Part shown: positions 1 to 53,732 of the stretch, piece after piece | Layout: the number at the start of each line of letters is the position of its first letter | How positions within the stretch are numbered: the first letter of the stretch is position 1 | IMG/VR virus record: IMGVR_UViG_3300045988_110853 | Span: 4,077-68,076 of that record | From: a virus | Direction: 5' to 3' (one strand) | Length of the DNA stretch: 64,000 nucleotides | Notes under the pieces: generated by a model | Seen by the model: only the letters and a program-made list of their open reading frames with translations | Database searches by the model: none | Told to the model about the DNA's origin: nothing | Translations under genes and position numbers: made by a program

Positions 1-526
1 CACCTTTTTTAGCAGTCCAATCTACTAATGTAAGAGTATTATTACTGATAGTATAGTTATCAGTCTCTTTCATCATTACACCGTTATAATAAGCAGTTAA
101 TGTACCAGAATCATTGTTGAAATCAAAAGGAATGGTGAATGTTGATTGTGTAGCATCAGATACGGTGAAAGTATATTTATTAGTAACTGAGTGATAATCG
201 ACACCGGCGGTCGCTGCGGTAATAGTATTACCATCGCTCTTTAAAATGCCAACTGGAAGAGAAACAAGAGTAGCTTCAACGGGAGTTTCCCACGTTTCAC
301 CATTTGTATTTTTTACGAGAGCATCGCCCGCGGTTCCACCATCGGGAAGACAAGAACTAAACTTTAAGTTGCCAACTTTAGTTGTTCCATCACCAATTTT
401 TATTTTATTTAAATCATCATAGATGATAATTTCGCCTTTTAAAGGAATAAAATTAGTCGCTTTCGCCCAATTCGCGGAACTATCGTGCTTTTGGACTATA
501 CGACTTTGATATGTTTTATTAGCCAT
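1..526 (-). CDS. tail fiber-like protein, N-terminal part (gene runs off window start)
   Basis: ATG at 524-526 preceded by RBS; N-terminus shares the IP.GE...KIGDGTT motif seen in 5 other genes here. Confidence 0.5.
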   Translation of the reverse strand, partial: MANKTYQSRIVQKHDSSANWAKATNFIPLKGEIIIYDDLNKIKIGDGTTKVGNLKFSSCLPDGGTAGDALVKNTNGETWETPVEATLVSLPVGILKSDGNTITAATAGVDYHSVTNKYTFTVSDATQSTFTIPFDFNNDSGTLTAYYNGVMMKETDNYTISNNTLTLVDWTAKKG

Positions 527-558
527 ATTATTTTCCTTTCTTTAAAAATTGTTTATTT

Positions 559-918
559 TTATTGTTTAACTGCATTTGCTTGAAGCCAAGTTAGAAGGGT
601 TCCTGTAGCAGGCTCATCAAAAGTAATAGTGCGATAAGCGTTATTAGTCCAAACATAAGCATTATCGTTATTTTCTTTATAACTTGCTACTTGACCAATA
701 TTTCCATAAGTTATAATAGAGGTTGAATTACTATATGTGATACCAAATGAAGTCGCTTTAAGGTTATTTGTTGTAAAAGAAATATTAATTGTTGCCAATT
801 CAATTGACCTACGAGTAGTAGGAGCAAAATCTTTAATAATCCATGTTTCAGTAGTATCAATAACAGGAGCAACTTTCACGCGCACAAGAGAATTATTTAT
901 TTTTAATAAATTACCCAT
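559..918 (-). CDS. hypothetical structural-module protein
   Basis: 119 aa uninterrupted ORF between tail fiber genes. Confidence 0.45.
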   Translation of the reverse strand: MGNLLKINNSLVRVKVAPVIDTTETWIIKDFAPTTRRSIELATINISFTTNNLKATSFGITYSNSTSIITYGNIGQVASYKENNDNAYVWTNNAYRTITFDEPATGTLLTWLQANAVKQ

Positions 919-929
919 ATTTATTTACC

Positions 930-1709
930 TCATTCAAAAACCATTGGTTCACTAACTTCAGTAGCTAGCGCGGTTAAACATTTTTCAATTTTTCCTCTTC
1001 TCAATGCTAATTCCGCAGTCGCGTCAAGAGAAGGATTACCTAAAGGATTAGTAATACCGATACCCGGGATAACTCTTGTAGCTCCAAATTTCATAGCTAC
1101 TGGAGTCAGAGCGGAAACGAGCGCTACCGGTTTTAATAGAATATCTTCTAATTGTTTACAGATTAATGCGCCTGCACGAGTACCTGTACTTTCCGCGCAC
1201 GTAAGAATAAACCCATCAATATTTTCATTTTTTAATTCAGTAGCTAAATTAGTTCCTAAAGTTGTTGCGGTATCTACAGTCATTCCGCCTCCAGAAGTTG
1301 TATAAAAATAATTATATAAAGAACCTATCGCGCCTTCCATTTCTAATCTACGCATTACATCTACAGGAAGCATACGGTCAGGATCTTCACTTACATTTGC
1401 AGGGTCATAAGTGCCGTCTGCGACTTCATAATTTTCAGAAGTTAAGTCTTGAACTCCATCAATAGAATATTTTTTATAAAAAGTAGCTTTAGAAGCAGGA
1501 ATTTTATCAGGGTTTCCTTTTGGTACAATTCCACCGACTGTAATTAAAGTGATTGTCGCTTTACTAATGTTTTTAATTACATTCATTTTAGGAGCTTCAG
1601 GAATTGTAATTCTTACTAAATTACCATTTTCCGCAATATTATTACTATTAATAGCAATTAAACTATTATTAGTAATAACAAAATTTTTATCTTGTAATAA
1701 TATTTTCAT
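930..1709 (-). CDS. hypothetical protein (possible GrdB/PrdB-like fold, speculative)
   Basis: 259 aa ORF, RBS aaaggagacaatta before ATG at 1709; motif LTCAESTGTRAG. Confidence 0.5.
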   Translation of the reverse strand: MKILLQDKNFVITNNSLIAINSNNIAENGNLVRITIPEAPKMNVIKNISKATITLITVGGIVPKGNPDKIPASKATFYKKYSIDGVQDLTSENYEVADGTYDPANVSEDPDRMLPVDVMRRLEMEGAIGSLYNYFYTTSGGGMTVDTATTLGTNLATELKNENIDGFILTCAESTGTRAGALICKQLEDILLKPVALVSALTPVAMKFGATRVIPGIGITNPLGNPSLDATAELALRRGKIEKCLTALATEVSEPMVFE

Positions 1710-1744
1710 TAATTGTCTCCTTTCTTTAAAGAGATTGATAAATA

Positions 1745-2510
1745 TTTATTGAGATGGCATAATATATCCAGCAATATTTAATGTATAATATGTCTTCGAC
1801 CAGTAATAACTTGAATTGCCAATCGTCATATAAAATTTTGAAGAATTTTGGTCAAAAGAGTGTGAAAAATTAATATTATTATTATTATATCCATCAAACT
1901 AAAATACATCACCATTTACAGCATAATATCCGTCTAAAAAAGCATAAATTCCTCCATCAGAAGGAACGTAATATCCATTTGGTTTAATTGAAATAGATTG
2001 CATCTAAAAATTAGGTGGTATAGATACATTATTCCAATATATTGTCTACGTATTTTCAAAAAGTGTATTTCCAGCTCGAATGATGCAATAATAAAAATCT
2101 TGCCGAGTTCCGGTAACTCCAAAAATAGACACTCCAGATACAATATTACCAGGAACAAGATTACTATCTCCTTGAACTTGTATTGTGCCTGTAGTATATT
2201 TCCCATTACTAACAGCAATTTTTGTATCAGTTCCAGGAACTATTGTGATACCACTCTAAGTCGATAATTGTAGTGTTTTATTTGTTCCACTCGATAAATA
2301 TCCGCTAGTCCCTACGCTTGAAGTAATTAAGCCATTACTATTCACGCTAATTTCATTTAAAGAACCAGTTGGCATAGCATTAACAGTTACTCTAGACAGT
2401 CCATCATAACCACTATCAGGCGCTACATTCTAAGAAGAAATAGAAGGAGAAACTGTTTTAGTTTGTAATTTAGGGCTTCCACCGCCACCACTCATCACTT
2501 CAGCGCTCAT
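1745..2510 (-). CDS. tail fiber-like protein, paralog of 3104-3892, about 5 in-frame TAG
   Basis: Starts MSAEVMSGGGGS exactly like 3104-3892 paralog; ORF only continuous if TAG is sense; ATG overlaps TGA of upstream gene (ATGA). Confidence 0.5.
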
Positions 2511-3073
2511 TTGCTTACTACCTTTATAATAACTGGAATAGCAATAGTAGGAACTGTGCCGATAGCTTTAATTATATTTTGAGTAGCATCACCGCAAATT
2601 TTAGCGTTAGAAAAAGCGTCATATTCCGTAGTGGTCGCGGTTGGAGCGACAGAAACAGTAATATCATACTAACTATTTGGATAAGTTGTTTCGAAACTAT
2701 AAGTTTTATTACTCCAATTAGCTACCGCCAAAGTGGTTGTTAAATATTTTGTAGTAATTGCGGTAATTGTTGTACCATCACTTTTTAAAGCCCCAATAGG
2801 TAATTCAATTAAAGTAGCTTCTACGGGAGTTTCCCATTTACTACCTTTTTCGTTCTTTACAAGAGCATCTCCATTATTTCCTTCGGCTGGTACAGAAATA
2901 AAACTTAAATTTCCAAGTTTAGTTGTGCCATCGCCAATTTTCATTTTATTTAAATCAGTATAAACAATAATTGATCCTGACGCTGGAATATAATCAGTTT
3001 GCGCGTTCCAATATGTTTCAGTATTATATTCTACGCCTTTACGCAATATATTTATCACTTTTGGAATTGCCAT
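2507..3073 (-). CDS. tail fiber N-terminal anchor domain protein (1 in-frame TAG at 2669-2671)
   Basis: MAIPKVIN..KIGDGTTKLGNL motif; read-through of TAG gives ORF ending TGA at 2507 overlapping next ATG. Confidence 0.55.
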
Positions 3074-3103
3074 ATTAAACCTCCTATTTTAAATAAATCT
3101 ATA

Positions 3104-3892
3104 TTAAGTTGGGGCTTTTTCACATATTACATATAAATAATATGGGTCTCCGCTAAAGTAAATATCAGAATTATTTTCTAATGTAATAGTAAATTTTCCT
3201 GTATTACCATAATTCCAAGTTACTTCAATATAGCTATTAACTGAAGTAACCGCATTTCCGCTCCAATCAGTATAACTCGCCCAAAGCTTTCCACCCCAAT
3301 TTTGATTTGTCATATAGCTTTGAAGAGCAATAAAACCACATTTATAGCTATATCCTTCGCGAATCATTATGATTTGATACGGATATAATGTTCTATCATA
3401 AAAACTGAATTTTGTAGGAATAAAAGTATAAGTTGTAGTTCCTTGAGAAGGCTAAATTTTTCTTACTTCTATTGGAGTGCTTGATAATGTTCCAGTTACT
3501 CCAAAAATATTTACTCCACTTTTAATATTACTGGCAGTTAAATTACTATCTCCACTTACTCTTATAGCTCCAGTTGTATATTTTCCACTATCAACCGCGG
3601 TTTGATTATATCTTCCAGGAGTTATAGTTTTTGAACCTTGAGTGGATAATTGTAATGTTTTATTTGTTCCGCTTGATAAATAACCACTAGTACCAACATT
3701 AGCAGTAATTAATCCATTACTATTAATAGTAGGATTATTAAGAACACCAGTTGGCATAGCATTAACAATTACTTTAGATAATCCATCGTAATTACTATCA
3801 GGTGTTACGATTTGAGAAGATGTTGATGGTGTAATAATTTTATCTTGTAATTTAAGACTCCCACCACCGCCACTCATTACTTCTGCGCTCAT
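3104..3892 (-). CDS. tail fiber-like protein (1 in-frame TAG at 3452-3454), ends TAA
   Basis: Track ORFs 3452-3892 and 3104-3367 are same frame separated only by TAG; paralog of 1745-2510. Confidence 0.55.
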
Positions 3893-4099
3893 TAATTATC
3901 TCCTTTCTTTGAGAAAATAAAAAAATGGTGTTACCTCTTTTGTATAATTAGAAGTAACACCATTTAGAAAATAGTTTTCTCAATAATCATTTCCAAAAGA
4001 GTAAAACCAAAATATATATTTAAATTTTAAGTTATCAATTCCAAACTTAAATTTTCTATCTACATTATATATTAATTTTTGGAAATGTTAATATATTGA

Positions 4100-4142
4100 A
4101 TTCGTCCAAAAGGAAAAAGGCTCTCAATTAAGAGAGCCTTTA
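4100..4142 (-). terminator. rho-independent terminator after 4144-4642 gene
   Basis: 10-bp perfect inverted repeat aaaggctctc/gagagccttt at 4117-4142 followed on minus strand by T-rich run. Confidence 0.6.
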
Positions 4143-4143
4143 A

Positions 4144-4642
4144 TTAAATATTTACTGTAGAGGAACCGCAATCAAAAATAACATAATTAGTTTGCGCGAG
4201 CGTCTCAATAGAGGGCGCACCCCACGTTCCATCACCTTTAAGAAAATTGTTCTTATTGGCGGCCGCAGGCGCAGGCACTAAACCTTTTGTTCCACTACTG
4301 GAACTAGTCGCACCAACCATTACATCAATATTATTTTGAACGACAGTCCAATCTGCGATTTTAAAAGCGGAGTTATAATTACCAACACATATAATCATAT
4401 CTCCTGGTTCAATCTTTCCGAGAGAACCAAGAGTAAATGTAGCATTGGATTTATAAGTCCAACCTGTTTTATAATTAGTTAAATTTGTGATACCGGTAGC
4501 ATTTGAAACCACACCTTTAAACACAAGAGAAGAAGCAAGAGTCGTCTCAAGCTAAGTAAGACGATCTCTTGCATCAGAGTCTTTCAGGTGGTAAATGACG
4601 CTACCTAAGTTGATTTTGGAAATCAATTTCATATTGTCTGCC
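4144..4642 (-). CDS. structural protein (1 in-frame TAG)
   Basis: ATG at 4640-4642 with RBS aaggtggtgagtaa; MADNMKLISK...RLT-TAG-LETTLASS continues into track ORF 4144-4524. Confidence 0.45.
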
Positions 4643-4678
4643 ATTTACTCACCACCTTATATTAAAATTTAACTATAA

Positions 4679-5896
4679 TTACTGAACAGTAACTTCCTTA
4701 GCGGCAACAGCAATGTCACCAACAGCAAGCTCAAGAGCAGCGCCAGTAAACTTAGTCTTAGTGGCATCTACACCAGCTTTGTCATAGCTTACACCGGAAA
4801 CAACAGAAGTCTTTTCACCAGCAAAGGTTGCAGTAATATCCGCAGAAGCACCAGCAAAGGTAGCTGCGAATTTATCACCAGTGAAGGTAGGAGCAGAAGC
4901 AGTGGCACTCTTAATACCAGTAACAACAGTAGTACCAGCTTCAGCCAATTCAGGCAAAGTACCCTTATCAAACGCACCTTCACTATAGGAAGCTTTAGCA
5001 CCCTGAGTAAAGGTAGGAAGAGTATTAGCAGTAAAGGAGAAACTCAGAGTCTCGCTTGCATCATCAACATTAGCACTCCAAGCAGCCTGAGAACCAGCAG
5101 TAAAGGTATCATCGCCATTAGGAGTAAAAGTGTCGGCAGCTTTAGAAGGCAAAGTACCTACAGAAGTAACTTTCTTAATGGTATCAGTATTTGGAGTGAC
5201 AGTCACAGTAGGAGCAGAAACACTACCAGAAATCTGAGTACCATTATCAGCATCCTTAGCAATGCTAACAGAACCAGCAGCAGTGACACTACCAGTGATA
5301 TCACCAGAAGGAGTATAATCACTCTTAGTTAAAGTGGCTGCGGTAGAAGTCTGAGTTAAACCAACTTCAATACTACCTGCGGAGGTACCAGTAGCCTTAA
5401 CGCCAGTAATGGTTTGACCAGCAACAGTGCCAGTAGCAGAACTCTTATAAGCAAGAGCACCAAGTCCCAAGTCGGTCTTTAAAGTCTCAAGAGAGAAAGT
5501 ACCTTCAAGAGCCTAAGTACCAATCTTGAAACTCTTCAGGGCATAAATACTCTCGTCACCAAGCTCGTGCCAATCAGCGGGCTCACCACCGTATACATAT
5601 TCCTTAACGCCGACAATTACAACATCACCGGGAGCGGGATCTTTAATGTCAGAAGTGGCACTAACAACGCCACGGAAGTGCATAGAACCAGCAATACCAG
5701 CAATAGCAGCTTGAACTTGAGCGCCAGTTACAAGGCCCTGTTCGTCAGCGCCAACACCAGCGGCAACATCTTTCTTAGCAGCAGTGCCAAGAGTTTTAAG
5801 AAGTTCACGAACTTCAGCATCTTTTAAATAATAAGTTTTTTCGCCAATAGTAAGTTTACTAATGACGGGTAAATTCTTAGGATCAAAAATAGCCAT
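4679..5896 (-). CDS. structural protein with Thr/Ser/Ala/Gly-rich C-terminal region (1 in-frame TAG at 5513-5515)
   Basis: Track ORFs 5513-5896 and 4679-5470 are same frame, joined through TAG. Confidence 0.5.
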
Positions 5897-5939
5897 AAAT
5901 AATTTTCCTCCATTAAATAATATATATATTATCTCGTTT

Positions 5940-6452
5940 AATTAAACGGAGATTATAAATTATATGCGAAAACGACAGTTTCATCTAATTCGTTTACTCG
6001 CATTTCAATTTTTTCTTTTAATTCATCAGTAATAGCTTTTTGAGTCATAGTGCCATCTATATTCTATCCAGGATTATTATATAATTTCATAATCCCAGGA
6101 GTTATTTCATTAGCGTTCTATGTTTCATTTATCGGAATATACTATGTTCCATTATAATAATAAATAATTTGATTACTTATATAAAGTCTATTTTCATATC
6201 CATTAATTATAATAGTATGTTCTTCATCTTTATAAAAATTATTCTCATAAAAGTATCCTCGAATAAAAAGATTATCTTGATAATTTAAATTACCATAAGA
6301 AGTAATTCCATCACCAATTTTTATTCTTAGTCCATTCTTCGCGGTATCTACTAAAATAGGTTCTCCGCGAGCTGGAATAAAAGTGTCTTTTACTTTTTCA
6401 TAATTATAATCATTATCACGACGTAATTTAATAATAGAATTAATCTATTTTA
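5940..6452 (-). CDS. tail fiber N-terminal anchor domain paralog (TAG-rich)
   Basis: RBS aggagg then ATG; MPNIK-TAG-INSIIKL...IPARGEPILVDTAKNGLRIKIGDGITSYGNL. Confidence 0.4.
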
Positions 6453-6486
6453 TATTAGGCATTTATTAGCCTCCTTTCTACCTTTT

Positions 6487-6858
6487 TTAGGCAGTAGGAG
6501 CACTACCACCATCAATAATTAAACCATCAAGTATATCAGTTAAATCATTTTCGTTAGGAACTTGACTAAATTGATTGTTATTAATAACATTATAACTAAC
6601 CCAGTTACCATCTTTATTTTTAATTGAAATGGTTTCACCTTCGTAATTACCATATTTAGCAACCCAAAGACGTGCTTCGTTTTCATTTTCAAAACGAGTC
6701 TTTTTAACAATTTGTTTTAAATTACCTTTTTCATCATAATAATAGACTTCTCCACTGTTTTTCTCGTTATTCGTTACGATAAGAGTTTCATTGGAGATAA
6801 CTTCTTCAGTAATACTATTATTAATTTTATCTTTATTTACATATGCTAATTTAAACAT
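6487..6858 (-). CDS. hypothetical protein
   Basis: 123 aa ORF with RBS ggagg. Confidence 0.45.
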   Translation of the reverse strand: MFKLAYVNKDKINNSITEEVISNETLIVTNNEKNSGEVYYYDEKGNLKQIVKKTRFENENEARLWVAKYGNYEGETISIKNKDGNWVSYNVINNNQFSQVPNENDLTDILDGLIIDGGSAPTA

Positions 6859-6917
6859 CAGTCAATCCTCCTCCCTCAGATTTTCGCGGTTACTACATAA
6901 TAACCATCAATGTAGTC

Positions 6918-8366
6918 CTACTCATATCCATCAGCAATTATTGCTTCTGGAAGTTCATGACTGAATCTACCACCGGAAACAACAAATTCAGCATTACCTT
7001 CAATAGTAAATAATTCTTTACCAGTACTTTCAAAAGTACCACCAGTAATTATAGTTTTACCAACATTAAGGGTATCATTGCTCTTAATGCTTTGAACAGT
7101 GGCATAACCATCATTTGTTGAGAAATAACCACCATTAATGGTAACAATCTTACCAACATTATAAATCATACCATAGAATTTACCATCATTAATAGTTAAA
7201 ACGCCATTATCATCATTTTTAATAGTAACATAAGCATCAATAAAAGTACCACCATTAATAGTTAACTCAGGAGACTCTGCGTTTTCACCATCAATGTGTT
7301 CTTTGCTATAATTATAATAACCATTATCAACTAAGCTAGATAATCCACCAGGGGAAGAGAAGATACCATCATTAATAGTCATATAACCGTGATTCTTTAA
7401 AACGTATCCTCCATTGCCTTTTTCATCAATAGAACGAGAATAAGTACCATTTTCAATTGTAGCATTACCATTACTTTCAATAACAGCTCTACCATTTTTA
7501 TTACATTCTACGTTGCCGTTACCGGTTAAAGTGAGATTACCCGTATTTTTAACCACAACAGGACAAGTATTGTTATTAACAATAACGGCATTATTCATAT
7601 CAACAGTAAATTTTTTATCTGCGGAAATTGGTTCATCTGCTTCAAGGCCACTACTTAATTTAATAGTTCCACCATCTTCAACAGCATCAATAGCTTCATT
7701 TACGCTAATAAAAGTTTGTCCGTTGACTTCAACTGAAGTGTCATTTGCGGTTTCGCCATATACTTTGATAACATCTAAATCAGTTTTTAAAGCATATTTG
7801 TCAAGTTCAACTTTCTCAACATAATCTTTTGCGATTTCTGCTTTAACATCTTCTACTTTTTGACCGACTTCAGTAATTTTATTATCTACATCAGAAATTT
7901 TTTGGTTAATTTCCCCGATAGAAGAATCAATTCCTTCAAACTTTTTATCTAAATCAGTAGTTAAATCTTTAATACTAACTTTGATAAGATTTGCAGTTTC
8001 TTCTTTATTGTAGTAATTACTAAGATCAACCGCGTGAAAAATTTCCCAGCTATCGCCATCCCAAATATAGAGAGTGCGCTCAGCCGTTACTTGATAAATA
8101 TCACCTGTTTCCGCAGATTCAGGTAAATTACTTTTTTCCGCGACTGTACCAATAAAATGAATAGCACCTTCATTGACGCCAACATATTTAAGTTCGCCCC
8201 AAGTAGAAGTGCCATCACCAATTTTTACTTGGCCTTTATTTTTTCCATCGAGGGTTACACATGGTTCGCCTGCTTTTGGAATGTAAGTGCTAGCAACCGC
8301 ATCCCATTGAGCTTGATATCCACGACGGAATTGGATAAGGGTCTGTAAAGTTTTCTTATTTGCCAT
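6918..8366 (-). CDS. tail spike/fiber with anchor domain plus beta-helix-like repeats (depolymerase-like)
   Basis: 482 aa; N-term IPKAGEPCVTLDGKNKGQVKIGDGTSTWGEL; C-term repeated NG/VxN strands; terminal TAG at 6918 may be read through to TGA at 6876. Confidence 0.65.
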   Translation of the reverse strand: MANKKTLQTLIQFRRGYQAQWDAVASTYIPKAGEPCVTLDGKNKGQVKIGDGTSTWGELKYVGVNEGAIHFIGTVAEKSNLPESAETGDIYQVTAERTLYIWDGDSWEIFHAVDLSNYYNKEETANLIKVSIKDLTTDLDKKFEGIDSSIGEINQKISDVDNKITEVGQKVEDVKAEIAKDYVEKVELDKYALKTDLDVIKVYGETANDTSVEVNGQTFISVNEAIDAVEDGGTIKLSSGLEADEPISADKKFTVDMNNAVIVNNNTCPVVVKNTGNLTLTGNGNVECNKNGRAVIESNGNATIENGTYSRSIDEKGNGGYVLKNHGYMTINDGIFSSPGGLSSLVDNGYYNYSKEHIDGENAESPELTINGGTFIDAYVTIKNDDNGVLTINDGKFYGMIYNVGKIVTINGGYFSTNDGYATVQSIKSNDTLNVGKTIITGGTFESTGKELFTIEGNAEFVVSGGRFSHELPEAIIADGYE

Positions 8367-8389
8367 TTACAAATTTCCTCCTTACTTAT

Positions 8390-8608
8390 TTACACTGGAA
8401 CTTCTCCGCCATCAATAACTTCATATGTATTATCGTCATTAATGTAAGGAAGGTCATTCCAAGCATGAACGCCATCGCCAACTTTTAATTTGCCAGTGTC
8501 TAATTCAAAACCCGGTTCTCCCGGACCTAAAAGAATATTTTTTTTAGTCCAAGTTTCTGCGTTTCCGCGTTTAAAATAAAACTTTGACTTCATATAAACA
8601 TCAGCCAA
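8390..8608 (-). CDS. small protein consisting of the tail-fiber anchor motif only
   Basis: 72 aa, GPGEPGFELDTGKLKVGDGVHAWNDLP, TAA stop. Confidence 0.45.
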   Translation of the reverse strand: MADVYMKSKFYFKRGNAETWTKKNILLGPGEPGFELDTGKLKVGDGVHAWNDLPYINDDNTYEVIDGGEVPV

Positions 8609-8626
8609 TTAAATACACCTCCTTAA

Positions 8627-8897
8627 TCAATACTACCGCCGTCCCAAATATATGTATTATCAGGATCAGAAGGTTCGGTGCTTCCACCGCCACTACTATT
8701 ATTACTATTGGATTTCTATTCAACCCAAGTATTATTATCTTGATAAATATATAATTTTGATGATTTAGGAATAAAAGCGGTACTACCAGGGAGCAATGAA
8801 ATTGTTGGAATTTTTTCAATATCTTCAACAGAATCAACTATAAATTTCTTCAATCCATAATTAACTTTACCATTTTGATGTGTTAAAGTATACATCT
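8627..8897 (-). CDS. small structural-module protein (1 in-frame TAG)
   Basis: MYTLTHQNGK...WVE-TAG-KSNSNN..., TAA stop. Confidence 0.35.
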
Positions 8898-8999
8898 TAT
8901 TGCCTCCTCTTTTATTACATCATTCTAAATAATATAAAAAAATATTCTTTATGAATATAAAAAATTGGCCTACTGAAAATCTCAATAGGCCAATTAATT

Positions 9000-11030
9000 T
9001 TAATAATTATTATATGCGGTTAGTAAAGTATCTAATTGTGTTTTAAAACTAGCATCACCTGACGCCACCTTAGTATTATTTCCCAAAGCAGTTGTTATAG
9101 CATTAAACCAAACTACTAAACGTAGGGGATTAGCGTCATTTATGGTAGCAATTGAACTATTTAAATAAGTATTTATATATCCCGCGAAAGTATTTGCTTC
9201 ACTTCTGGAATAGTCTTTCCAAGTAAATGCGGGCCACCAAACTGCGTAATAAGTTATATTAGATGTTCCAGTAGAAATTGAAGGTGTTGCTCCCTTTTTA
9301 TAAGTCGCGGTTTTTGCCGTAGACGATGTAGACCATCCTTTAAAAATATAATTATTGCGAGTAGGATAATTGGATCCGTTAATATTAAAAGAAGAATTAG
9401 TATTAACTGTCTGTGATCCCGGCCCGCCAGAACCGCCATTCGCATTATAAGTTATGGTTATTGTATTTCTTTTCCAAATCGCATAAAAAGTTGTTGAACC
9501 ACTTACTAATACAGAACTTCCTGCGCTATAGCCAGAAGTAGCAGATGAAGAAGTGCTCCATCCTTGGAAAGTATAGTTTGTACGAGATGGCGCGGAAGCC
9601 ATTGTAGCGTTCATAGAATCAGCGTAAACATAATTTGTAGACCAGATAGTATTAGTACCATCATTCTTGTTAAAGGTTATTGTATATTGTCTATAATAGT
9701 TATATTGCCACGGTATAGAATATGTGCTGCTATTACTCCAAGCGGCGTTTACATACCAATAATAAGTAGTGCTTGCTGATGCTGTATATTCAATTTTAGT
9801 ATCATAACCAGTTCCCGCTCCATCATCATCTACTTTTAATGTTGTTCCACTAACAGCACTTGTTCTACTAGTTCCCGAAGCAGCTGATAAAAGTGAAGAA
9901 CTTAAATAGCTATAATAGTCAGGACTTTTAGAATTACTGGTTGTTTTAAATACCAATTTTCCAGCATAACTTGGAGTTGTTACTGTAATATATCCTGCCT
10001 TATAAGCAGGTACAGAAGTAGTACCACTTGTTCCACTAGTACCACTACCTATAGTATACATACTAATTGGTGTCATCCAAGAACTTATTGATTCAAAATA
10101 AAAATAAAGTTTTCCTGAAAAAGCAGCAGGGCTACTCCAAGGAGCTATCGCTATTCTATAAGTTGTATTAGCAGTCACAGAAAACTAAGTTATTTTAAAA
10201 TGTCCGCTTCCGCCACTTTGATCGTCAGATATTAAATAATTTGTTATTGCCTAATATCCACTAGAAGCGCTTGAATTTAATCCCATTGAATTGGCATATC
10301 CTATAAATCCATAGTCATCAAAACTATCTCCAGAAGCATATGCAGTAAGAAGTCCATTTGAACTAGGAGTATAATCAATATACCCAATTCCGTAAGAAGA
10401 TAAATTATAGTCTACATAAGTATTGACTGCGCCACTATAATTACCTAAATTTTGTAAATACCATCCTGTTGGAGCTTCAGTATAAAAGAAAACTACATAA
10501 GGATGCCTTGAACTATGATTGGTACAAACAGAGTCTGTTCCATCATAATTTCCATTTTTTGCCTGTTCTACACATTTTGACCAAGTGCTATGATAAACAT
10601 AACCCTAATAAGTATATCCACTAATAGTAGGAGCTGTAATGCTTGAAGAAGAAGTGGAAGTTTCATAGCCCATATAATCTCCAGCGGTTAAATTGTAGCA
10701 ATCCCAATGATAATCATCATCAGAGCCACCGCTACCTCCTCCGCCTCCACCAGAATCTTCATCAGTCCAAGCAACTCCTGTTCCAGAGGCTCCATTATTC
10801 CACTAGCCTGCTGTATAATAATCTACTTCCCAAGCATATTCATACCTTGTGCCAGGAGTTAATCCTGAAATTCGAACCCAAGGAGTTCCAGTTGTTGAAG
10901 AACCAGTATCCGAAGTCCCATCATCTAAACGGACATATAACCTTCTACTAACATTATCTGAACTTATTCCACTTGCTTCAAAAATTAATGAGGTAGTAGT
11001 ACTACTTGTACAACTTACAGAAACAGCCAT
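9000..11030 (-). CDS. large structural protein with FN3-like motif (about 4 in-frame TAG)
   Basis: ATG 11028-11030 after RBS aagggagg; GLTPGTRYEY FN3 signature; joins track ORFs 10803-11030 and 9000-10178 through TAGs; TAA stop. Confidence 0.5.
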
Positions 11031-11980: not shown

Positions 11981-12207
11981 TTGAGGGTTTTAATTAGGTT
12001 AACCCACAACCTCCGATAGTGTGTCTACTGAACCAAAGGAATGCCCGATCGCCACATTCCACTCTTTAAAAGATGGACGCTTCTAATCCTACTTCCTATC
12101 GTATAAAAGGACTTATCAATGACTTTTATACATATTGCCTTTATTATCTTTATAAACAAATTAGCATTACCCAGTGCTACCGCGAGGAGGTTTTGTTTTT
12201 AGCACCG

Positions 12208-12296
12208 CAGCCCCGCTGGGATTCGAACCCAGAACGACTCCTTCAAAGGGAAAACGGTTTTAGAGACCGCCGTGTTAACCGTTACACTACGGGGCA
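12208..12296 (-). tRNA. suppressor tRNA, anticodon CTA (reads UAG); type-II-like long variable region, discriminator G
   Basis: Manual fold: D-arm GTGT AACGGTTA ACAC; anticodon stem GCGGT/ACCGT with loop CTCTAAA; T-arm CTGGG TTCGAAT CCCAG; 21-nt variable region. Confidence 0.7.
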
Positions 12297-13942: not shown

Positions 13943-14800
13943 TTAAGTAGTTAAAAATGCGTTATAACCTTTTGATTTTAAATCATTGATTACTTTAATA
14001 GCATTTGCTTTTATAGAAAAAGCACCTACTTGAACTTTATAATACTTGCCTATCTTGCGAATATAAGCATTTTTATAACCTGCTCCAATAGTATCAGGTA
14101 ATGCTTTAATCTTCAATAAGAAAGCATCAGCATTGGATTTAGATCCAAAAGCACCAAGTTGAACGCGATAAATAATTTGCGGTTTAAGGTAAACTGCCAT
14201 TACATTATCTACTGCGCGATTACCCCAGTCTTTAGTAATACAAGTTCCATTGTGAAGAACTTTTGTGCTACCACCGCCATCAAGATTAATAGCATAATCA
14301 ACCTTTAATGTTAAAAGTAAATTCTACATTTCCGCAAACGCCATACCTGGCTTTTCAATAGCGATTAAATAAATATTAGATTTATTATATGCTAATACTG
14401 TTCTGCGAGCTTTATAATCTAATTCTTTAGCATAAGTAATTTGAGCTTTTTTACCAGCTTTAATTAATACCGGATAACCACTGACAAAATCTTCAAATCT
14501 TTCTGTCCCAATTATGCCATATTTCAATTCACCATTAACTATGCCAAATCCTTCTTTATAAGAAGAAGTAGAATTAATGATTACACCATTATCCATATAA
14601 TTAAAACAAGTAGCACCATTATCCATACTAAAGAAACCGCCATTAGTTAAAATAGTAGGTTTAACCGCACAACTATCATAATATTGCTTTAAAGTCTAAC
14701 GCGGTTGGGCGCATAACGCCATATCTAACTTACTAATTTCTTCTTTTGGAATTTCAATAATTTTCACATACGAATAATTATTTGGAGAATATATTTTCAT
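13943..14800 (-). CDS. putative cell-wall hydrolase: NAGPA (phosphodiester glycosidase)-like domain plus C-terminal SPOR domain (2 in-frame TAG)
   Basis: RBS aaggaaggtg; YAINLDGGGST motif; C-terminal SPOR repeats YRVQLGAF..YKVQVGAF; TAGs at 14324 and about 14700. Confidence 0.55.
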
Positions 14801-15090: not shown

Positions 15091-15170
15091 GCCTGTGAGC
15101 TAAGATTTGAACTTAAATCTTTGTAGCGCTTCCAATATTTTACCATTTAAACTACCCACAGATAAGTCGC
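15091..15170 (-). other. tRNA-like gene with good acceptor/D/T arms and CCA but unresolvable anticodon arm
   Basis: CTGTGGG TA GTTT AAATGGTA AAAT ... TTAAG TTCAAAT CTTAG CTCACAG G CCA. Confidence 0.35.
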
Positions 15171-15208: not shown

Positions 15209-15727
15209 TTAAGAAACCCGCGATTTTAACCAGTAAACAGACATTCGTTCTTCCGGCTGATTAGTCATTTCACCTTTTGGCCCTAAAATTTCAGGATAAG
15301 GCCAAACATATTCATTTGCGGTCTTTTCATCAGGAAATTCAACTTCCGCGTAGCAAAACTTTCCATCAACTTCACTAACTTCAATCAATCGCCCAGGATT
15401 ATAAATATCTTGAACCATATAATAATCCTTAATAATAGGATTATAACCTTCGTGTCGAGTTTTTCTAATCATTTCATAGAAATCCACGGAAATAGATGTT
15501 TCAACTTCCTCACGAGAAAGACCATCGCCATATTTGTATGTCATCTTATAATCAACTTGATTGGTTTTAAGATTAATGGCTTTCCGCACTCGAATTTCTT
15601 CAAGCACCTTACCATCATTATCAAAATCAACCATAATATAAATCTGCTCGATTTTCTTATGACGAACACATTTTTCCTTCATCCAAGAAGGGATATTCTT
15701 AATATCAAACTTACGTTCGATTTCCAT
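15209..15727 (-). CDS. CYTH-domain protein (triphosphate tunnel metalloenzyme; CyaB-like cyclase or triphosphatase)
   Basis: N-terminal EIERKF (ExExK signature), 172 aa, TAA stop. Confidence 0.65.
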   Translation of the reverse strand: MEIERKFDIKNIPSWMKEKCVRHKKIEQIYIMVDFDNDGKVLEEIRVRKAINLKTNQVDYKMTYKYGDGLSREEVETSISVDFYEMIRKTRHEGYNPIIKDYYMVQDIYNPGRLIEVSEVDGKFCYAEVEFPDEKTANEYVWPYPEILGPKGEMTNQPEERMSVYWLKSRVS

Positions 15728-15862: not shown

Positions 15863-16492
15863 TCATATTTTATCAAATCTCCAAACATAATTATAAGCAG
15901 TTTTACGCTCGCCTCGGGCGACGTCCGCGATCCTTTTTGCTATTGTATCAATTGATGCTTTTGATACTTTTTGTGAAGCAATCCATCTAGCTCCATCACC
16001 GCAAGATTCAAAGTGAGAAATAAAATTCCCATCTCGATCTAAACAAGATATAGGTTTATTTCCAATTTTAGGAGCAACTGTTTGAATTTTTCTTCCTTGA
16101 AGAATTTTACAAACTGTTTTTTCACTAATATTAAGATATTTAGCTACTTCTTTTTGATTTTTTATTTTCTGATAAGTGTCAATAACTAAATCATAATCAA
16201 GATATTTCTTACCATCTCCGCCGAGAGTAGCATTATACCCATTTTTAAAAGAACCTAATTTTTCAATCCAATAAATTTCTCTATCTTCTGGATTATCAGT
16301 TTCTTCAATTAACTCAACATGAAAATGTTCTATTCCATATTTTCGCATTGCTGAATATAATGGACGTTTTTCATAACTCTCTTTTTTAAAAGCTCTACAA
16401 TGTTCTAAAAATCTTTCTTCAACAGTTCTTTCAGTTTTACCAACATAAATTTTCTAATTTATGTCATTAGTAATTTTATAAATGTATGCCAT
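15863..16492 (-). CDS. GIY-YIG homing endonuclease (1 in-frame TAG)
   Basis: YIYKITNDIN-TAG-KIYVGKTE...YWIEKLGSFKNGYNATLGG; C-terminal basic DNA-binding region; RBS aaaggagc. Confidence 0.6.
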
Positions 16493-18286: not shown

Positions 18287-18354
18287 ATCCTACCTCCTCT
18301 GCTTTTCTGGACTTGGAACCAGCTTATGGTAGCATTAGATAGGCGACCGCACTT

Positions 18355-22119: not shown

Positions 22120-22200
22120 TTGCCCGGAAAATGGATTTGAACCATTAACTTAATCTTAAATGATTATGACCTAACCTTTAGTCTATTCTGGAAGTTATTT
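22120..22200 (-). other. tRNA-like gene with 6- or 8-nt anticodon loop (TAATC ATTTAA GATTA)
   Basis: Acceptor TCCAGAA/TTCCGGG with mismatch, D-arm GAC TAAAGGTTAG GTC, T-arm AATGG TTCAAAT CCATT. Confidence 0.25.
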
Positions 22201-22269: not shown

Positions 22270-23148
22270 TTAATTTCGACCAACATCTAAAATATAACAA
22301 AAACCAGCTAATCTATATTCAGGTTTAAAGAAATATTGAGCTAAAGCTTTTGCGCAATGATCCGCAGAATTTCGTCCAGAAAGTTTAATGTTATTAAATC
22401 CAAGAGGAAGATACTTATCAATAATTTCATCCATATAAATCATATCTTTATTACCGATTTCTGGAAACATAGAATCATTATTTTTAATAGTAGTACAACT
22501 TCTTTCTTTATCATTAAAAGCCTGAAAAAGATTCATTTTAGAAAAAATATTATAATGAGTATATAAGCGCGGACAGTCAATAGGACATGTTTCGTCTACC
22601 AAAATTTCAATTCTATTCCTTTTATTTTCTGGTACAGAATTTAAAAAATCCCAGTCTCGATTTTTACGACGAGGAATAACTACACTTTCATAAATATCAA
22701 GTGCTTTTACAAAATCATAATCTTCCTTTGCAGCTGTAATACTCTTTGTAAGTTTATAATTAGGAAACTTATCTCGAAGATACTTTTCGAGAATAGGAGA
22801 ATTAACAATAATTTCATTCATTCCATTATCAAAAAGTTTAAGCATTTCATTACATTGTCTATCATATACGTCTGTTTCTTCAAGGTTAGGATTTGTAAGG
22901 GTAAAGCGCAAAATAATATTATTCTTTTCATAAAATTCTCGTACAGCACAGAGATAATCAATATTATGTTCTGGCATTCCGCCCATAAAACCTCCGCCAT
23001 TCCAAATCATGCCAGGAAGTGCACCATAAACATATTTTACTTTTGCTTCTGGATAAAAAGCTTGAGGTTCAAGCTCTTGAAGTTCAAGTAATCTATCATA
23101 AACATCAATACCATAATAAAATTCAGGGCAATTAAAATTAATATCCAT
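22270..23148 (-). CDS. hypothetical protein, last gene of YcaO/radical-SAM cluster
   Basis: 292 aa ORF, very AT-rich codon usage. Confidence 0.55.
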   Translation of the reverse strand: MDINFNCPEFYYGIDVYDRLLELQELEPQAFYPEAKVKYVYGALPGMIWNGGGFMGGMPEHNIDYLCAVREFYEKNNIILRFTLTNPNLEETDVYDRQCNEMLKLFDNGMNEIIVNSPILEKYLRDKFPNYKLTKSITAAKEDYDFVKALDIYESVVIPRRKNRDWDFLNSVPENKRNRIEILVDETCPIDCPRLYTHYNIFSKMNLFQAFNDKERSCTTIKNNDSMFPEIGNKDMIYMDEIIDKYLPLGFNNIKLSGRNSADHCAKALAQYFFKPEYRLAGFCYILDVGRN

Positions 23149-23161
23149 TTATATTCTCCTA

Positions 23162-24979
23162 TTAGTAATTTGCAATCATTGTTTTAAAATCTTTAGAATT
23201 AAAAATTTCTCTCATTGGTTCAAGAATACATTTTTCAACCAAATATTTTCTATTTAAAATATTATTAAAATCTTCATTAGTATATTCATAATTATATTCT
23301 TTTAAAATATCAATTATTTCATCTTTAGAATATTTCCTACTTTTTACATAAGAATATAAATTAAGATACTTTTTAAATTTTTTATAATAAGGACTTACTG
23401 TAATATCTACGGCAAATTGATTATCTTCAAGAAGATAATCAGCAGGATCTTCAAATAGATTTTTTACAAAAATTTCATTAGGAATAGTTTGCACATCTAC
23501 ATTATTATATGAAACAAGTAAATCTCCTTGTGATAAAAGCCCTAAAAATCTATCAGTTAAAGTGTCTCCTTCAATTAAATCTGTAAATGTTAAAGAATCT
23601 TTAATAATATCATATACTCCATCACCAGTATCTAAATATTTTTGAATATGTCCGCATTTATTTTTAGTAAGAATAGCACTTTTTTTTAAAGTCTTTAATG
23701 TTTTACATTTATTTAAAAAAGAATACCAAAATCCGTCAAGATTGTCAAGATAAATATCAATTGCTGTAATTTTATTACTTAAAGATACATCAGCATAATA
23801 AATTTTTGCTCCAATTGATTTTGTAATTTTTTTATTCCACTCAAGAATTTCTTCATTAGAATAACTTTTATTCTCGTAGGATAAGAATACATCTTTATTT
23901 ATAGTATTTACATACTTTTTATTAAGAAGAATATTCTCAGGAAATGTATTTAAATTAGTAATACAAGAACCACCCATGATAATAATATCATCATCATTTA
24001 ATGTATTATAAGGAAGAATAATAGAAAATTTTCTATCATCATAAGAGAAACAATTTTGATACATTTCAGTTAAAATACGTTCAACCGCAATTTCAAACAC
24101 AGGAAAAGCGCCAAAATTTGCAGAAATAGTTCCATTTTTATAATTGATAAGAACTCCCATTACTACTGGAATATTAAAAGTTCTTGACATATCAATAATA
24201 TAATATTTATTACCATGAGATTCAATAGCATTAATAATATCTATTAGTTTTTTATCAGTAATACTATTAATATCAAAAAAATAATAATTTTTATCAGTAT
24301 TAGTATAAAAATGACTAACTACGTAATGTTCAAAAATTTCTGATAATCCTTGATTTAAAGCTTCAGTTAAAGTATTACCAGCGGCCATACCAGAGCTACC
24401 TTGATAACGTTGAACAAGACGTGGGTCTAAATATTTAATATCTTTATCATCGTTTAGATTGATATAAGGAGTGCCAAAAAATTTATTATTATACATAGAA
24501 ACAAGACAATCTTTAATTAAATAGTTAGTTTCTTCATCAAAAGAATTAAAAAATTTATACATTAAAGATTCTTTTTCTCCAAGAGCTTCTTCAAAGCTTA
24601 CTTCTTTTTCATTTTTAAATAATGAATATCCATAATTTTTTTGATTTGCTTTAATTTTTTCATTACATAAAAATGGATTACATAAATAATGTAATCCATT
24701 ACAAAATCTTTCATACATTTCAGCGTATCCAGAAGCCATAGCGAATTCTTTAGATACTCCTTTACCGAAAGATCTTAAAATAGAATGACCTTTATAATAT
24801 AAACGAAGAGCAAGACTCCAAGTCGTAGATTGTTCTTGACGCAAAACTTCTTCGATGCAATAAAAGTCTCGATCCGCGAAGAATTGCTTAATGTTATTTA
24901 CTGTGTCTAGAGGACTAATTTCTTTATAATGTTGTGAATAATTATTCATATGATATTTTGCCTTTCTTTTTCCTATCAT
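23162..24979 (-). CDS. YcaO-domain protein with about 300 aa C-terminal extension of unknown type
   Basis: SFGKGVSKEFAMASGYAEMYERF and QGSSGMAAGNTLTEALNQGLSEIFEHY match YcaO ATP-binding motifs; 605 aa, no in-frame stops. Confidence 0.7.
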   Translation of the reverse strand: MIGKRKAKYHMNNYSQHYKEISPLDTVNNIKQFFADRDFYCIEEVLRQEQSTTWSLALRLYYKGHSILRSFGKGVSKEFAMASGYAEMYERFCNGLHYLCNPFLCNEKIKANQKNYGYSLFKNEKEVSFEEALGEKESLMYKFFNSFDEETNYLIKDCLVSMYNNKFFGTPYINLNDDKDIKYLDPRLVQRYQGSSGMAAGNTLTEALNQGLSEIFEHYVVSHFYTNTDKNYYFFDINSITDKKLIDIINAIESHGNKYYIIDMSRTFNIPVVMGVLINYKNGTISANFGAFPVFEIAVERILTEMYQNCFSYDDRKFSIILPYNTLNDDDIIIMGGSCITNLNTFPENILLNKKYVNTINKDVFLSYENKSYSNEEILEWNKKITKSIGAKIYYADVSLSNKITAIDIYLDNLDGFWYSFLNKCKTLKTLKKSAILTKNKCGHIQKYLDTGDGVYDIIKDSLTFTDLIEGDTLTDRFLGLLSQGDLLVSYNNVDVQTIPNEIFVKNLFEDPADYLLEDNQFAVDITVSPYYKKFKKYLNLYSYVKSRKYSKDEIIDILKEYNYEYTNEDFNNILNRKYLVEKCILEPMREIFNSKDFKTMIANY

Positions 24980-25014
24980 ATAAATATATTACTATATTTT
25001 TTTAATAAAGTCAA
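24975..25014 (-). promoter_or_regulatory. class-A promoter variant (TTGACT-N17-TAATAT)
   Basis: -35 25009-25014, -10 24986-24991. Confidence 0.45.
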
Positions 25015-25083
25015 AAACCTACCAAATAAAGTGGTAGGTTTTTGACTTTATCAAATTAAATAAAAACAATTAGGGCATAAATA

Positions 25084-25305
25084 CTAATTATCATTTATTT
25101 TAAATAATGGGATATTATTTATTTGTAAATTACATTTAGAGCATCGTTTATTTTTATAAATTTTTGGTATAAAAATTTCTATATCTGGTTCAAATAAGTT
25201 TAAAAGATTATTAGATATTCTTTGAAAATAAATATCTTTTTCTTCATTACTATCATTATAATTATATTGTAAAATATATTCACACATTATTTTACAATGA
25301 TTCAA
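25084..25305 (-). CDS. small Cys-containing hypothetical protein
   Basis: 73 aa ORF; TAG-interrupted coding continues upstream to about 25700. Confidence 0.3.
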   Translation of the reverse strand: MNHCKIMCEYILQYNYNDSNEEKDIYFQRISNNLLNLFEPDIEIFIPKIYKNKRCSKCNLQINNIPLFKINDN

Positions 25306-25712
25306 ATTAGTTAATTTTAATTCCTCTATTGGGACAACAATACTAGATATATTATCTAAATTTATTTTAGATTTAATTATATACTATATTTGAAGAATTA
25401 TAGTTTTATCTTTTTTAATAATTCCTAAATTAAAACAAACGAAAAGTATCCAATAGTCATAAATACTATTATTATCAAAATCAAAAGATAAAGCTCTTAT
25501 TTTATCCCAAAAAATTTGTTCTGAAGTCTCAAATCCACCATTACTAAATTTCATTTAATTCTCCATTAAAACAATAATTATAATAATTATTTGTATCTTT
25601 TTCAAGTTGAATACTTCGAGGATAATCTAATTCCCAAGATGTTCTTTTATTATAAAACTATAAAAAATTTTTTAATATATCTTGTATAAATTCTTTATAT
25701 TCATCATAAGTA

Positions 25713-27767: not shown

Positions 27768-28320
27768 CGAAATCTCCTAATATATGAGTGTTATAATCAA
27801 CTAATTCTCTTATTTGATTATTACGTTCATGTAAAAAACATTGAGTACAAATTTCATTTAAATCATTTAAAGGTTCATGGAAAAAATTGCAATAATGTTT
27901 TTCAAAATCAAAATATTTACAATGCTTATCACATATTAAAATATCATTATCTTTATCATAAATTACAGAATGGTCTTCTCGTAAACGAAAAGATAATTGA
28001 ATTTTAAACATTAAAGTTCCTTGATAAGAATATAAAAAAGTTTTATAAAATATGTCTTGAACTTTACTTTCAAAAGTAAATTTCTATTTATCTGTAGTAA
28101 TAAGCTCAATGCATTCTATTTCATTCTAATCTATAGTTTTAACTTGCTAATAAACCTAATTTAAAAAAGAATAATCAATATCATTCTAATCTTTAATTAT
28201 TTTCGCAAAAACTATTTCTTTTGGAAAATTTAATTGAAATATAATATCATCACATTGACGCTCATTAAATTTAACAGATTTTAAAATTTCTTTATTTGAA
28301 TTAATAAAATTAATAACCAT
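27739..28320 (-). CDS. Cys/His-rich hypothetical protein (about 5 in-frame TAG)
   Basis: MVINFINSNKE...; C-terminal CDKHCKYFDFEKHYCNFFHEP..CTQCFLHE. Confidence 0.35.
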
Positions 28321-28636
28321 TTCTCTTATCAGGAATTCCTTTTAATCGATCTCCTAAGAAATATCTATATAATTCATAAGAATCAATACCATTATCACAA
28401 TAACAATTATTATTATTTTCATTATTGTTGTTATCGTTATTATTAGATTTTTCTGTATGATCTGTAATAATTATTTTAATAAAATTATTAATAATAGTAT
28501 TAATTTCTTCATTCTCACCATTATTTTCAATCCAATTTAAATAAATAATATATAAAAGATCTCTATAATCTTCTACATTACTATAATCAAAAGTTTCAAT
28601 TAAATGGTTAATTTGATTTTTCATTTCTTCAATCAT
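28310..28636 (-). CDS. hypothetical protein with poly-Asn tract
   Basis: 108 aa ORF. Confidence 0.4.
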   Translation of the reverse strand: MIEEMKNQINHLIETFDYSNVEDYRDLLYIIYLNWIENNGENEEINTIINNFIKIIITDHTEKSNNNDNNNNENNNNCYCDNGIDSYELYRYFLGDRLKGIPDKRNGY

Positions 28637-48875: not shown

Positions 48876-49046
48876 TTAAACATAAAAGACCGACTGAATG
48901 AAACCTGTAAACAGGCAGAGCAACATACCCATTCCGCAGTAATAATACTTCTCACTGAGGGGCATAGTATCATCATTCAGTAGATCAAGATACATAAATG
49001 CGAAAAATACCAAAATAATAAACAACATAATAATCATTTCTCCCAT
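48876..49046 (-). CDS. small membrane protein
   Basis: RBS gaggaggtaagaagat then ATG; hydrophobic 56 aa. Confidence 0.4.
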   Translation of the reverse strand: MGEMIIMLFIILVFFAFMYLDLLNDDTMPLSEKYYYCGMGMLLCLFTGFIQSVFYV

Positions 49047-53520: not shown

Positions 53521-53732
53521 TATATATGAAGGAGGTGGAAGTGTTGTCGGTAGAATAGAAGAGATTTCCCGCTAATGTAGATATGAATATATTAACTTTT
53601 TTAAATAATAAGAAGATAAATGGCGAGTTATACGCTTATTTATAGAGCTTATCTGAGTATGATGTTATTAATAAATAGTATAATATTTATAAGACTTATG
53701 TATTAAAAAAATGGTTGCCAATTCAAAGTAAG

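Follow-up and report, generated by a model that had tools for sequence, protein, structure and literature searches.

Probable reassignment of TAG to glutamine in a large human-gut phage carrying a suppressor tRNA and an adjoining theta ribozyme

TAG is read as a sense codon, very probably for glutamine, in a 64,000-nt stretch of viral DNA (IMG/VR record IMGVR_UViG_3300045988_110853, positions 4,077 to 68,076; hereafter the window), with TAA and TGA as the only stop codons, an arrangement that corresponds to genetic code 15. The window, which has a GC content of 35% and carries nearly all of its genes up to ~53 kb on the minus strand, is part of the ~196-kb genome of a tailed phage of the human gut, and it encodes an amber suppressor tRNA with the anticodon CUA, termed tRNA(CUA) here, directly followed by a hepatitis delta virus (HDV)-like ribozyme of the theta type. 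An earlier note, made from the letters of the DNA, had proposed that UAG is a sense codon and that TAA and TGA terminate in the structural genes of positions 1-11,030. This proposal is supported by coding density, selection, protein domains, the presence of tRNA(CUA) and the interchange of TAG with CAA and CAG in related phages.

Under the standard code, the open reading frames (ORFs) of positions 1-11,030 break exactly at TAG codons, as that note had described. Genes were re-called with TAG as sense, a check that it had recommended, by means of a scored heuristic gene caller of our own and not Prodigal, and a reading with TGA as sense served as the control. Translation of TAG raised the coding density of positions 1-11,030 from 65.2% (standard code) to 89.5%, and the TGA control gave 65.3%; in the same order, the values for the whole window were 64.9%, 76.0% and 65.5%, and density in the block at 53.5-55.2 kb rose from 9% to 84% when TAG was translated. 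The gain exceeds the increase of 5-10% with TAG as sense that was taken as indicative of code 15. Plain ORF-length totals under alternative sets of stops were dropped in favor of the scored gene calls and the TGA control, since the removal of TAA inflates random ORFs in AT-rich DNA and makes such totals uninformative. The absence of any density gain with TGA as sense led to the rejection of TGA recoding. A tRNA-SeC (tca) predicted by ARAGORN at 10855-10934 lies inside the gene 9000-11030, is without Rfam support even at E ≤ 1 and was likewise rejected.

With TAA and TGA as the sole stops, 19 in-frame TAGs are found in 9 of the 13 minus-strand genes of positions 1-11,030 (Table 1), and every gene end in this region is TAA or TGA. 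The gene coordinates proposed earlier were recovered as minus-strand ORFs closed by these two stops, with TAA at 3104, 8390 and 9000 and TGA at 2507 and 16705, and the estimate of about five TAGs in 1746-2510 agrees with the five counted. The 12 residues said to open both this gene and its paralog 3104-3892 are indeed common to the two (MSAEVMSGGGGS), which share 49% identity overall. Three TAG-containing genes were absent from the earlier list, namely 5953-6462 (four TAGs), 6876-8366 (one) and 8623-8895 (one). The ATG of 1746-2510 overlaps the TGA stop of 2507-3073 as ATGA (2507-2510), and a second overlap of this kind is located at 15863-15866. The description of these genes as structural is reasonable, since they are tail-fibre-like and include an Mtd_N domain, tail-fibre families of PHROG and Flg_new repeats. 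In the window as a whole, 61 in-frame TAGs were identified in 24 of 92 genes, whose stops comprise 65 TAA and 27 TGA; the standard bacterial code would split these 24 genes, including tail-fibre, lysis-type and peptide-maturase genes, and code 15 is therefore needed to annotate them.

The reading frame is maintained across the TAG sites. Synonymous changes account for 0.48 of the codon differences from relatives before the first TAG is reached and for 0.51 beyond it, indicating that both sides belong to the same frame under the same selection. TAGs are crossed by the Pfam domains NAGPA, glycosyltransferase 2, Radical_SAM and GIY-YIG, and alignments to relatives pass through the TAG sites, a point on which the earlier note had wished to see homology examined; the TAA or TGA codons at the junctions that it named as evidence to the contrary do not occur in these frames. 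Sequencing error, which it had also considered, is contradicted by independent assemblies that keep the TAGs: an assembly of another sample is 100% identical across 11.7 kb, and a contig from a third sample (98.4% identity) retains all 19 TAGs of positions 1-11,030. The gene calls deposited with these contigs, which are independent of ours, predict proteins of the same full length (676, 496, 405, 262, 254 aa etc.), and in a public protein collection the TAG codons of the DNA are rendered as Q, indicating that automated annotation had already handled this genome as code 15.

Glutamine as the meaning of TAG is indicated by a codon comparison between the genes of the window and 26 related loci, in which a site entered the count once for each distinct sequence context. 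At sites with TAG in the window but not in a relative, the relative most often has CAA (11 sites) or CAG (9), with no other codon at more than 2; conversely, TAG is found in a relative but not in the window at 37 sites, of which 13 are CAA and 2 are CAG in the window. By tally, TAG alternates with a glutamine codon at 34 of the 63 variable sites, to be compared with a glutamine background of 2.2% (P ~ 2e-39). CAA, which is two changes away from TAG, outnumbers CAG as the partner and matches the local preference for CAA, suggesting synonymous exchange rather than mutation alone. The pattern holds in genomes with the identical 90-nt tRNA (glutamine partner at 14 of 24 sites, serine at 2) and in near-identical relatives that have ordinary CUA tRNAs of 72-73 nt (18 of 37 sites). 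Single sites agree with it. Codon 159 of the endolysin-like gene 13943-14800, a TAG inside the NAGPA domain, is CAA or CAG in orthologs, and it is CAG in two orthologs of 54-56% identity that have no TAG in that gene; in 9000-11030, three of the four TAG sites are occupied by CAG or CAA in relatives; and TAG stands opposite Q at two positions of the paralogs 1746-2510 and 3104-3892, the Q being in the latter. Among 120 homologs, Q was also found in 90 at one TAG site and in 110 at another, counts that are partly confounded by translation with code 15 in the database.

A tRNA suited to this reading is present. ARAGORN and Rfam identified about 20 tRNA genes, all on the minus strand at 10.8-22.2 kb, among which one has the anticodon CUA and none is a tRNA-Gln with a normal anticodon. 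The identity elements of Escherichia coli glutaminyl-tRNA synthetase (GlnRS) are G73, a weak or unpaired 1:72 position, G10 and U35, and tRNA(CUA) carries all of these, with a U1·U72 mismatch at the end of the acceptor stem; its CCA sequence is not encoded. The tRNA-Gln genes of related phages also have G73 and a weak 1:72 pair (A-U or U-A). The short class I variable loop expected of a tRNA-Gln is not found in tRNA(CUA), which instead has a 17-nt insertion in the variable region that forms a stem of 3-4 bp and is kept in distant relatives.

The slot occupied by tRNA(CUA) varies among close relatives. Phages ~95% identical to the window carry three unrelated tRNA(CUA) bodies (90, 73 and 72 nt) in this one slot, the alternative bodies being located at L009:12652-12724 and L006:6666-6737 in two of the related loci. 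Each body is preceded by the shared sequence AAGTTGAATTAAGGAGT and followed by the same theta ribozyme, and each has a 1:72 mismatch, G73 and C74. In more distant relatives, the 90-nt tRNA is followed by an encoded GCCA and is without a ribozyme.

The ribozyme consists of the successive segments GGTGCT, AA, AAACAAA, ACC, T, CC, TCGC, GGT, AGCACT, GG, GTAATG, CTAA and TTTGTTT, which form the helices P1 (GGUGCU/AGCACU), P2 (AAACAAA/UUUGUUU), P3 (ACC/GGU) and P1.1 (CC/GG), with CUAA as J4/2. The result is a nested double pseudoknot, P1/P2/P3/P1.1, in the published theta order and beginning at G1. G1 lies at 12206 and the tRNA ends at 12208 according to Rfam or 12207 according to ARAGORN, within the 5 nt used to define adjacency; the ribozyme starts one base beyond the discriminator position of tRNA(CUA). 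A pattern scan identified a single such element in the window, and the element occupies the same place in 12 relative loci; a ribozyme attached to the suppressor only, out of ~20 tRNAs, makes this locus a clean natural example. Across 6 different ribozyme sequences, pairing is retained in 99% of cells, and compensatory changes were observed in 12 of the 19 pairs (in P1 and P2); the pairing figure is partly built in, since 3 of the 6 came from a scan that required pairing. P3, P1.1 and CTAA are invariant in all six, and the presumed catalytic C corresponds to the first position of J4/2.

Recoding is not confined to the structural genes or to positions 1-11,030, as the distribution of TAGs by block and the TAG-containing genes elsewhere in the window demonstrate (Table 1). 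The block at 36.6-53 kb stands apart: its one in-frame TAG, the second codon of 51010-51312, probably reflects a mis-called start, and the block has 0 genuine TAGs among ~105 glutamine-type codons, against ~17 expected at the rate of 1-36.5 kb (P ~ 5e-9). The block at 53514-55182 opens with a helix-turn-helix (HTH) gene that contains 10 TAGs, the largest number in any gene of the window, and that is annotated through sub-threshold HTH matches in Pfam and NCBIfam. This gene could encode a replication initiator, a suggestion prompted by the iteron-like repeats just upstream at the strand switch (53103-53478). The repeats comprise five copies of TAGGTAATTTTTCATAGTT with a spacing of ~42 nt, two tandem copies of TGGTCnAAAnTTTCTATAT with a spacing of 21 nt and a further TTTCTATAT core at 53156-53169, and may represent a replication origin or an operator array.

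Table 1. Blocks, TAG-containing genes and RNA elements of the window, with coordinates counted from its first letter
Feature	Coordinates	Strand	TAG content and remarks
Block	1-36.5 kb	-	37 genes; 40 TAG in 18 genes; TAG 17% of Gln-type codons
Block	36.6-53 kb	-	38 genes; no genuine TAG; all 38 stops TAA/TGA
Block	53.5-55.2 kb (53514-55182)	+	5 genes; 18 TAG in 4 genes vs 8 CAA+CAG
Block	56-64 kb	-	12 genes; 2 TAG, both in HNH endonuclease
Tail-fibre-cluster gene, 254 aa	1746-2510	-	5 TAG: 1899-1901, 2004-2006, 2046-2048, 2256-2258, 2430-2432
Tail-fibre-like gene, 188 aa	2507-3073	-	1 TAG: 2669-2671; TGA end; phrog_6049 tail fibre
Paralog of 1746-2510, 262 aa	3104-3892	-	1 TAG: 3452-3454; TAA end
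166-aa gene	4144-4644	-	1 TAG: 4552-4554
405-aa gene	4679-5896	-	1 TAG: 5513-5515; CAG or CAA there in relatives
169-aa gene	5953-6462	-	4 TAG, each at a variable site
Tail protein, Mtd_N domain, 496 aa	6876-8366	-	TAG at codon 483 (6918-6920), CAA/CAG in relatives; TGA end
90-aa gene	8623-8895	-	1 TAG (codon 60); TAG or CAA in relatives
Flg_new-repeat protein, 676 aa	9000-11030	-	4 TAG, codons ending 10187, 10253, 10607, 10805
HDV-like theta ribozyme	12154-12206	-	directly 3' of tRNA(CUA); Rfam match 12152-12206
Amber suppressor tRNA, anticodon CUA	12208-12296	-	Rfam tRNA, 56 bits; ARAGORN
Endolysin-like gene, NAGPA + SPOR domains	13943-14800	-	2 TAG
GIY-YIG homing endonuclease	15863-16492	-	1 TAG within catalytic domain
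Radical-SAM + glycosyltransferase-2 fusion	25713-27767	-	8 TAG
Radical-SAM/SPASM-like gene	30035-31537	-	TAG within CxxxCxxC motif (CNLHC-TAG-YC)
HNH/NUMOD4 homing endonuclease	56895-57491	-	2 TAG

These elements can be assembled into a mechanism for the decoding of UAG, one that follows the model already published for recoded phages. tRNA(CUA) would be transcribed together with its neighbors in the minus-strand tRNA array, and the ribozyme would then cleave itself at 12207/12206. Since cleavage 5' of G1 leaves a tRNA ending in G73-C74, healing of the end and completion of CCA would be needed, and these steps may be performed by a host or phage enzyme. Judging from U35 of the CUA anticodon, G73 and the unpaired 1:72 position, the tRNA would be charged with glutamine, either by the host glutaminyl-tRNA synthetase or through a route that uses glutamyl-tRNA synthetase (GluRS) and an amidotransferase. 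Charged tRNA(CUA) would outcompete release factor 1 at UAG, and the tail-fibre, lysis and other TAG-containing genes would yield full-length protein only once it became available; the TAG-free genes of 36.6-53 kb, readable by unmodified host machinery, could be expressed from the start. For the healing of the tRNA end, two candidate proteins were considered, namely the Metallophos protein 49034-49768, for which no sequence match was found in PDB, and 15209-15727, whose match to two uncharacterised PDB proteins is weak (E 0.024).

Several observations weigh against this account as a whole. The suppressor tRNA is itself located within recoded DNA, with TAG-containing genes upstream on the same strand, and the most TAG-rich gene of the window is the HTH gene behind the five iteron-like repeats; the position of the tRNA and the richness of this gene do not obviously fit a simple timer with a standard early phase and a recoded late phase. 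The ribozyme scores 26.1 bits against the Rfam family RF02682 (HDV-F-prausnitzii), whose threshold is 44 and which models a longer relative rather than the theta subgroup; its P1 has 6 pairs, compared with 7 in the published Theta0001; and the exact ribozyme and tRNA sequences were not found in the part of the theta catalogue tables available for comparison (PMC10879173). Neither the window nor flanks of ~10 kb and ~7 kb revealed a release factor, a tRNA synthetase or a CCA-adding enzyme. Finally, the long variable arm of tRNA(CUA) is of the kind recognized by seryl-tRNA synthetase (SerRS), an enzyme that uses a long variable arm together with G73 and ignores the anticodon.

The last point raises the question of whether TAG encodes serine, or a mixture of glutamine and serine. 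The 17-nt arm with its stem is conserved in distant relatives, and AGT, a serine codon, stands opposite TAG at a few sites. However, serine accounts for 7% of residues, so that 2 serine partners among 24 in the genomes with the same tRNA represent background, to be set against 14 for glutamine; a TCN codon is never found opposite TAG, Q faces TAG in the paralogs of the window, and the relatives with CUA tRNAs of ordinary length display the same glutamine pattern. Serine is accordingly considered very improbable. Pyrrolysine might be thought of in view of the Pyl label assigned to tRNA(CUA) by ARAGORN and of three radical-SAM proteins in the window, but ARAGORN labels the CUA anticodon in this way, and every CUA tRNA of the relatives bears the label. 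The normal GG of the D loop, the T loop GGTTCGAATCC and the long variable arm differ from what is generally known of tRNA-Pyl; moreover, the radical-SAM proteins match peptide maturases of the SPASM type and not PylB, no PylS-like match was obtained among ~40 proteins of the window scanned with Pfam, PHROGs or NCBIfam, and the partner codons specify glutamine and not lysine, which together leave pyrrolysine with hardly any probability.

The breaking of standard-code ORFs exactly at TAG would also be expected if the TAGs were true stops, whether in pseudogenes, through assembly or sequencing errors, or with occasional readthrough. Against this stand the conservation of TAGs in independent assemblies and samples and in relatives at 72-96% identity, the equal purifying selection before and after them, the domains that span them in frames devoid of TAA and TGA, the dedicated tRNA(CUA) and the sheer number of 61 in-frame TAGs in 24 genes; true stops are thus almost inconceivable as an explanation. 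A division of the window into two codes, in which TAG would be a stop within 36.6-53 kb and code 15 would apply to the rest, deserves more weight, although it is still regarded as rather unlikely. Such block-wise codes have been described for some crAss-like phages (bioRxiv 10.1101/2022.06.29.495998), and the lack of genuine TAGs in 38 genes contrasts with 40 TAGs in the 37 genes of the first block. Nevertheless, none of the 38 stops in the block is TAG, and its genes therefore read alike under either code, which makes the block neutral between the two and not demonstrably standard. Glutamine at TAG, with TAA and TGA as the stops, is consequently retained as the reading of the window.

Two extensions of this reading were entertained and are, taken together, judged unlikely, if less so than two codes. 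If the block at 53.5-55.2 kb is a replication or regulatory module, the suppressor unit might be more than a timer of late genes, and maturation of tRNA(CUA) by the ribozyme might gate the whole infection program. The suppressor might also behave as an exchangeable cassette in which selection favors replacement of the tRNA body, for instance as an escape from host defences that target tRNAs, and leaves the ribozyme fixed. A class-II-like arm on a glutamine-type suppressor and the swapping of tRNA bodies among near-identical phages may be of some minor interest in themselves.

One of the TAG-free proteins of the window has identical copies in two contigs from human-gut metagenomes (196,188 and 196,116 bp). 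In the 196,188-bp contig, positions 125,600-189,599 correspond to the window in reverse complement, and the left end of the window is also covered by a third assembly of 196,180 bp. Relatives in IMG/VR are 158-201 kb long with protein identities of 72-96%. Searches of PHROG and Pfam revealed features of a tailed phage, including tail-fibre families, HNH and GIY-YIG endonucleases, a peptidase and an exonuclease-like protein. No nucleotide match was found in the GenBank phage collection (megablast, 24 kb of the window), and two protein searches returned no crAss-like or Lak matches; the terminase and capsid genes lie outside the window. The best matches of the exonuclease-like protein are from Enterococcus phages (38% identity), and that of phage phAss-1 is 28.7% identical. 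In these comparisons, the lineage has no close match among described phages. These Enterococcus phage matches and those of the SPOR domain to endolysins of Faecalibacterium phages are weak hints of a host among the Bacillota. A search for the host in genomes returned only a phage contig within an "uncultured Mollicutes" metagenome-assembled genome (MAG). A close relative of the present phage (L030; CAMELE010000001.1, 163,874 bp), which encodes an endolysin-like protein 94% identical to that of the window, is deposited as a contig under the name "uncultured Mollicutes bacterium". The MAG concerned is used as the representative genome of a species, and the placement of the contig there is probably a binning artefact.

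Other features of the region were recorded in passing. Amid the tail-fibre cluster, a 259-aa protein (930-1709, minus strand) carries a domain that is odd among tail genes: it matches the C-terminal half of the selenoprotein B of glycine/sarcosine/betaine reductase (Pfam GRDB, E 4e-45; NCBIfam TIGR01918, E 3e-67, positions 216-431 of 431) and contains no in-frame TGA. A minus-strand cluster at 22270-32271, with a GC content of 22-29%, contains a YcaO protein (23162-24949), the radical-SAM/glycosyltransferase-2 fusion (25713-27767), two SPASM-like radical-SAM proteins (28629-30035 and 30035-31537) with weak matches to peptide maturases of the ranthipeptide type, and a protein of 235 aa with a Ser/Asn/Tyr/Gly/Arg repeat (AYDGSYNGSYRASNN...) as its C-terminal half. 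The whole resembles a phage-carried cluster for the modification of peptides similar to ribosomally synthesized and post-translationally modified peptides (RiPPs). The segment 56000-64000 has a GC content of 38-45%, compared with 35% overall, and a codon usage unlike that of the rest of the window; it includes a paralogous pair, 58754-59131 and 61366-61740, whose products start with MSTSTVKKLTKRDRFEALLKM and MATSTVKKLTKRDRFEALLKM, respectively.

The tRNA array holds further unusual elements. A match to the type-P1 twister ribozyme at 18291-18341 (minus strand) scores 39 bits against a threshold of 67 (local E 2e-7), with the conserved core present and one stem shortened. Two tRNA-like genes on the minus strand depart from the usual anticodon arm: that at 22122-22192, which is also found in relatives, has a 6-nt anticodon loop AUUUAA (Rfam, 37.9 bits), and that at 15092-15161, missed by ARAGORN, has a 3-bp anticodon stem and a 9-nt loop (41.8 bits). 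In the tRNA array of one distant relative, a transfer-messenger RNA gene with the tag peptide DNNYFDSHMAA is predicted (L016:9512-9856), together with tRNA-like genes that have 8-nt anticodon loops; neither the former nor the latter is present in the window.

In E. coli, the amber suppressors charged with glutamine include supE, a tRNA-Gln with the anticodon CUA, and su7, which is derived from tRNA-Trp. tRNA(CUA) resembles them in its anticodon, in G73 and in the weak or absent 1:72 pair, elements used by GlnRS, and departs from a canonical tRNA-Gln in the 17 extra nucleotides of its variable arm. Reassignment of TAG to glutamine under code 15 is known from phages of the human and animal gut surveyed by Borges et al. 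(bioRxiv 10.1101/2021.08.26.457843), and it has been confirmed by metaproteomics in crAss-like phages (PMC9523058). The present phage has in common with such code-15 gut phages the in-frame TAGs in structural and lysis-type genes, the alignment of TAG with glutamine, a phage-encoded tRNA(CUA), a TAG-free set of other genes, a low GC content and the human gut as its source. It differs from those surveyed in that it appears to represent another lineage, of ~196 kb, in which the HTH gene and the YcaO/radical-SAM cluster are also recoded, and in that neither a release factor nor a synthetase was seen in the window and the examined flanks. The Phassvirus group phage phAss-1, whose 136-kb genome has 41 ORFs with TAG and encodes three suppressor tRNAs (PMC10607447), is likewise a large gut phage of the Caudoviricetes that combines TAG recoding with suppressor tRNAs; its relation to the present phage is distant, as judged from the exonuclease-like protein, the genome sizes differ, and the window contains one suppressor tRNA.

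Theta ribozymes were described as minimal HDV-like ribozymes located 3' of phage tRNAs; 20% of those linked to tRNAs adjoin suppressor tRNAs, and 96% of the genomes concerned use code 15 (Kienbeck et al., 2024; PMC10879173). Code-15 recoding, suppressor tRNAs and theta ribozymes have therefore all been published before, and the window adds one more large gut-phage lineage that combines the three, without opening a new question. Its ribozyme differs from Theta0001 in a P1 of 6 bp that starts with a G·U pair and in an L4 of GTAATG instead of GTAACG, and shares with it the domain order and the invariant core, ACC-T-CC-NNNN-GGT, GG and CTAA. As in other theta systems, the predicted cleavage site abuts a tRNA, here tRNA(CUA), that has no encoded CCA, in a genome of code 15.

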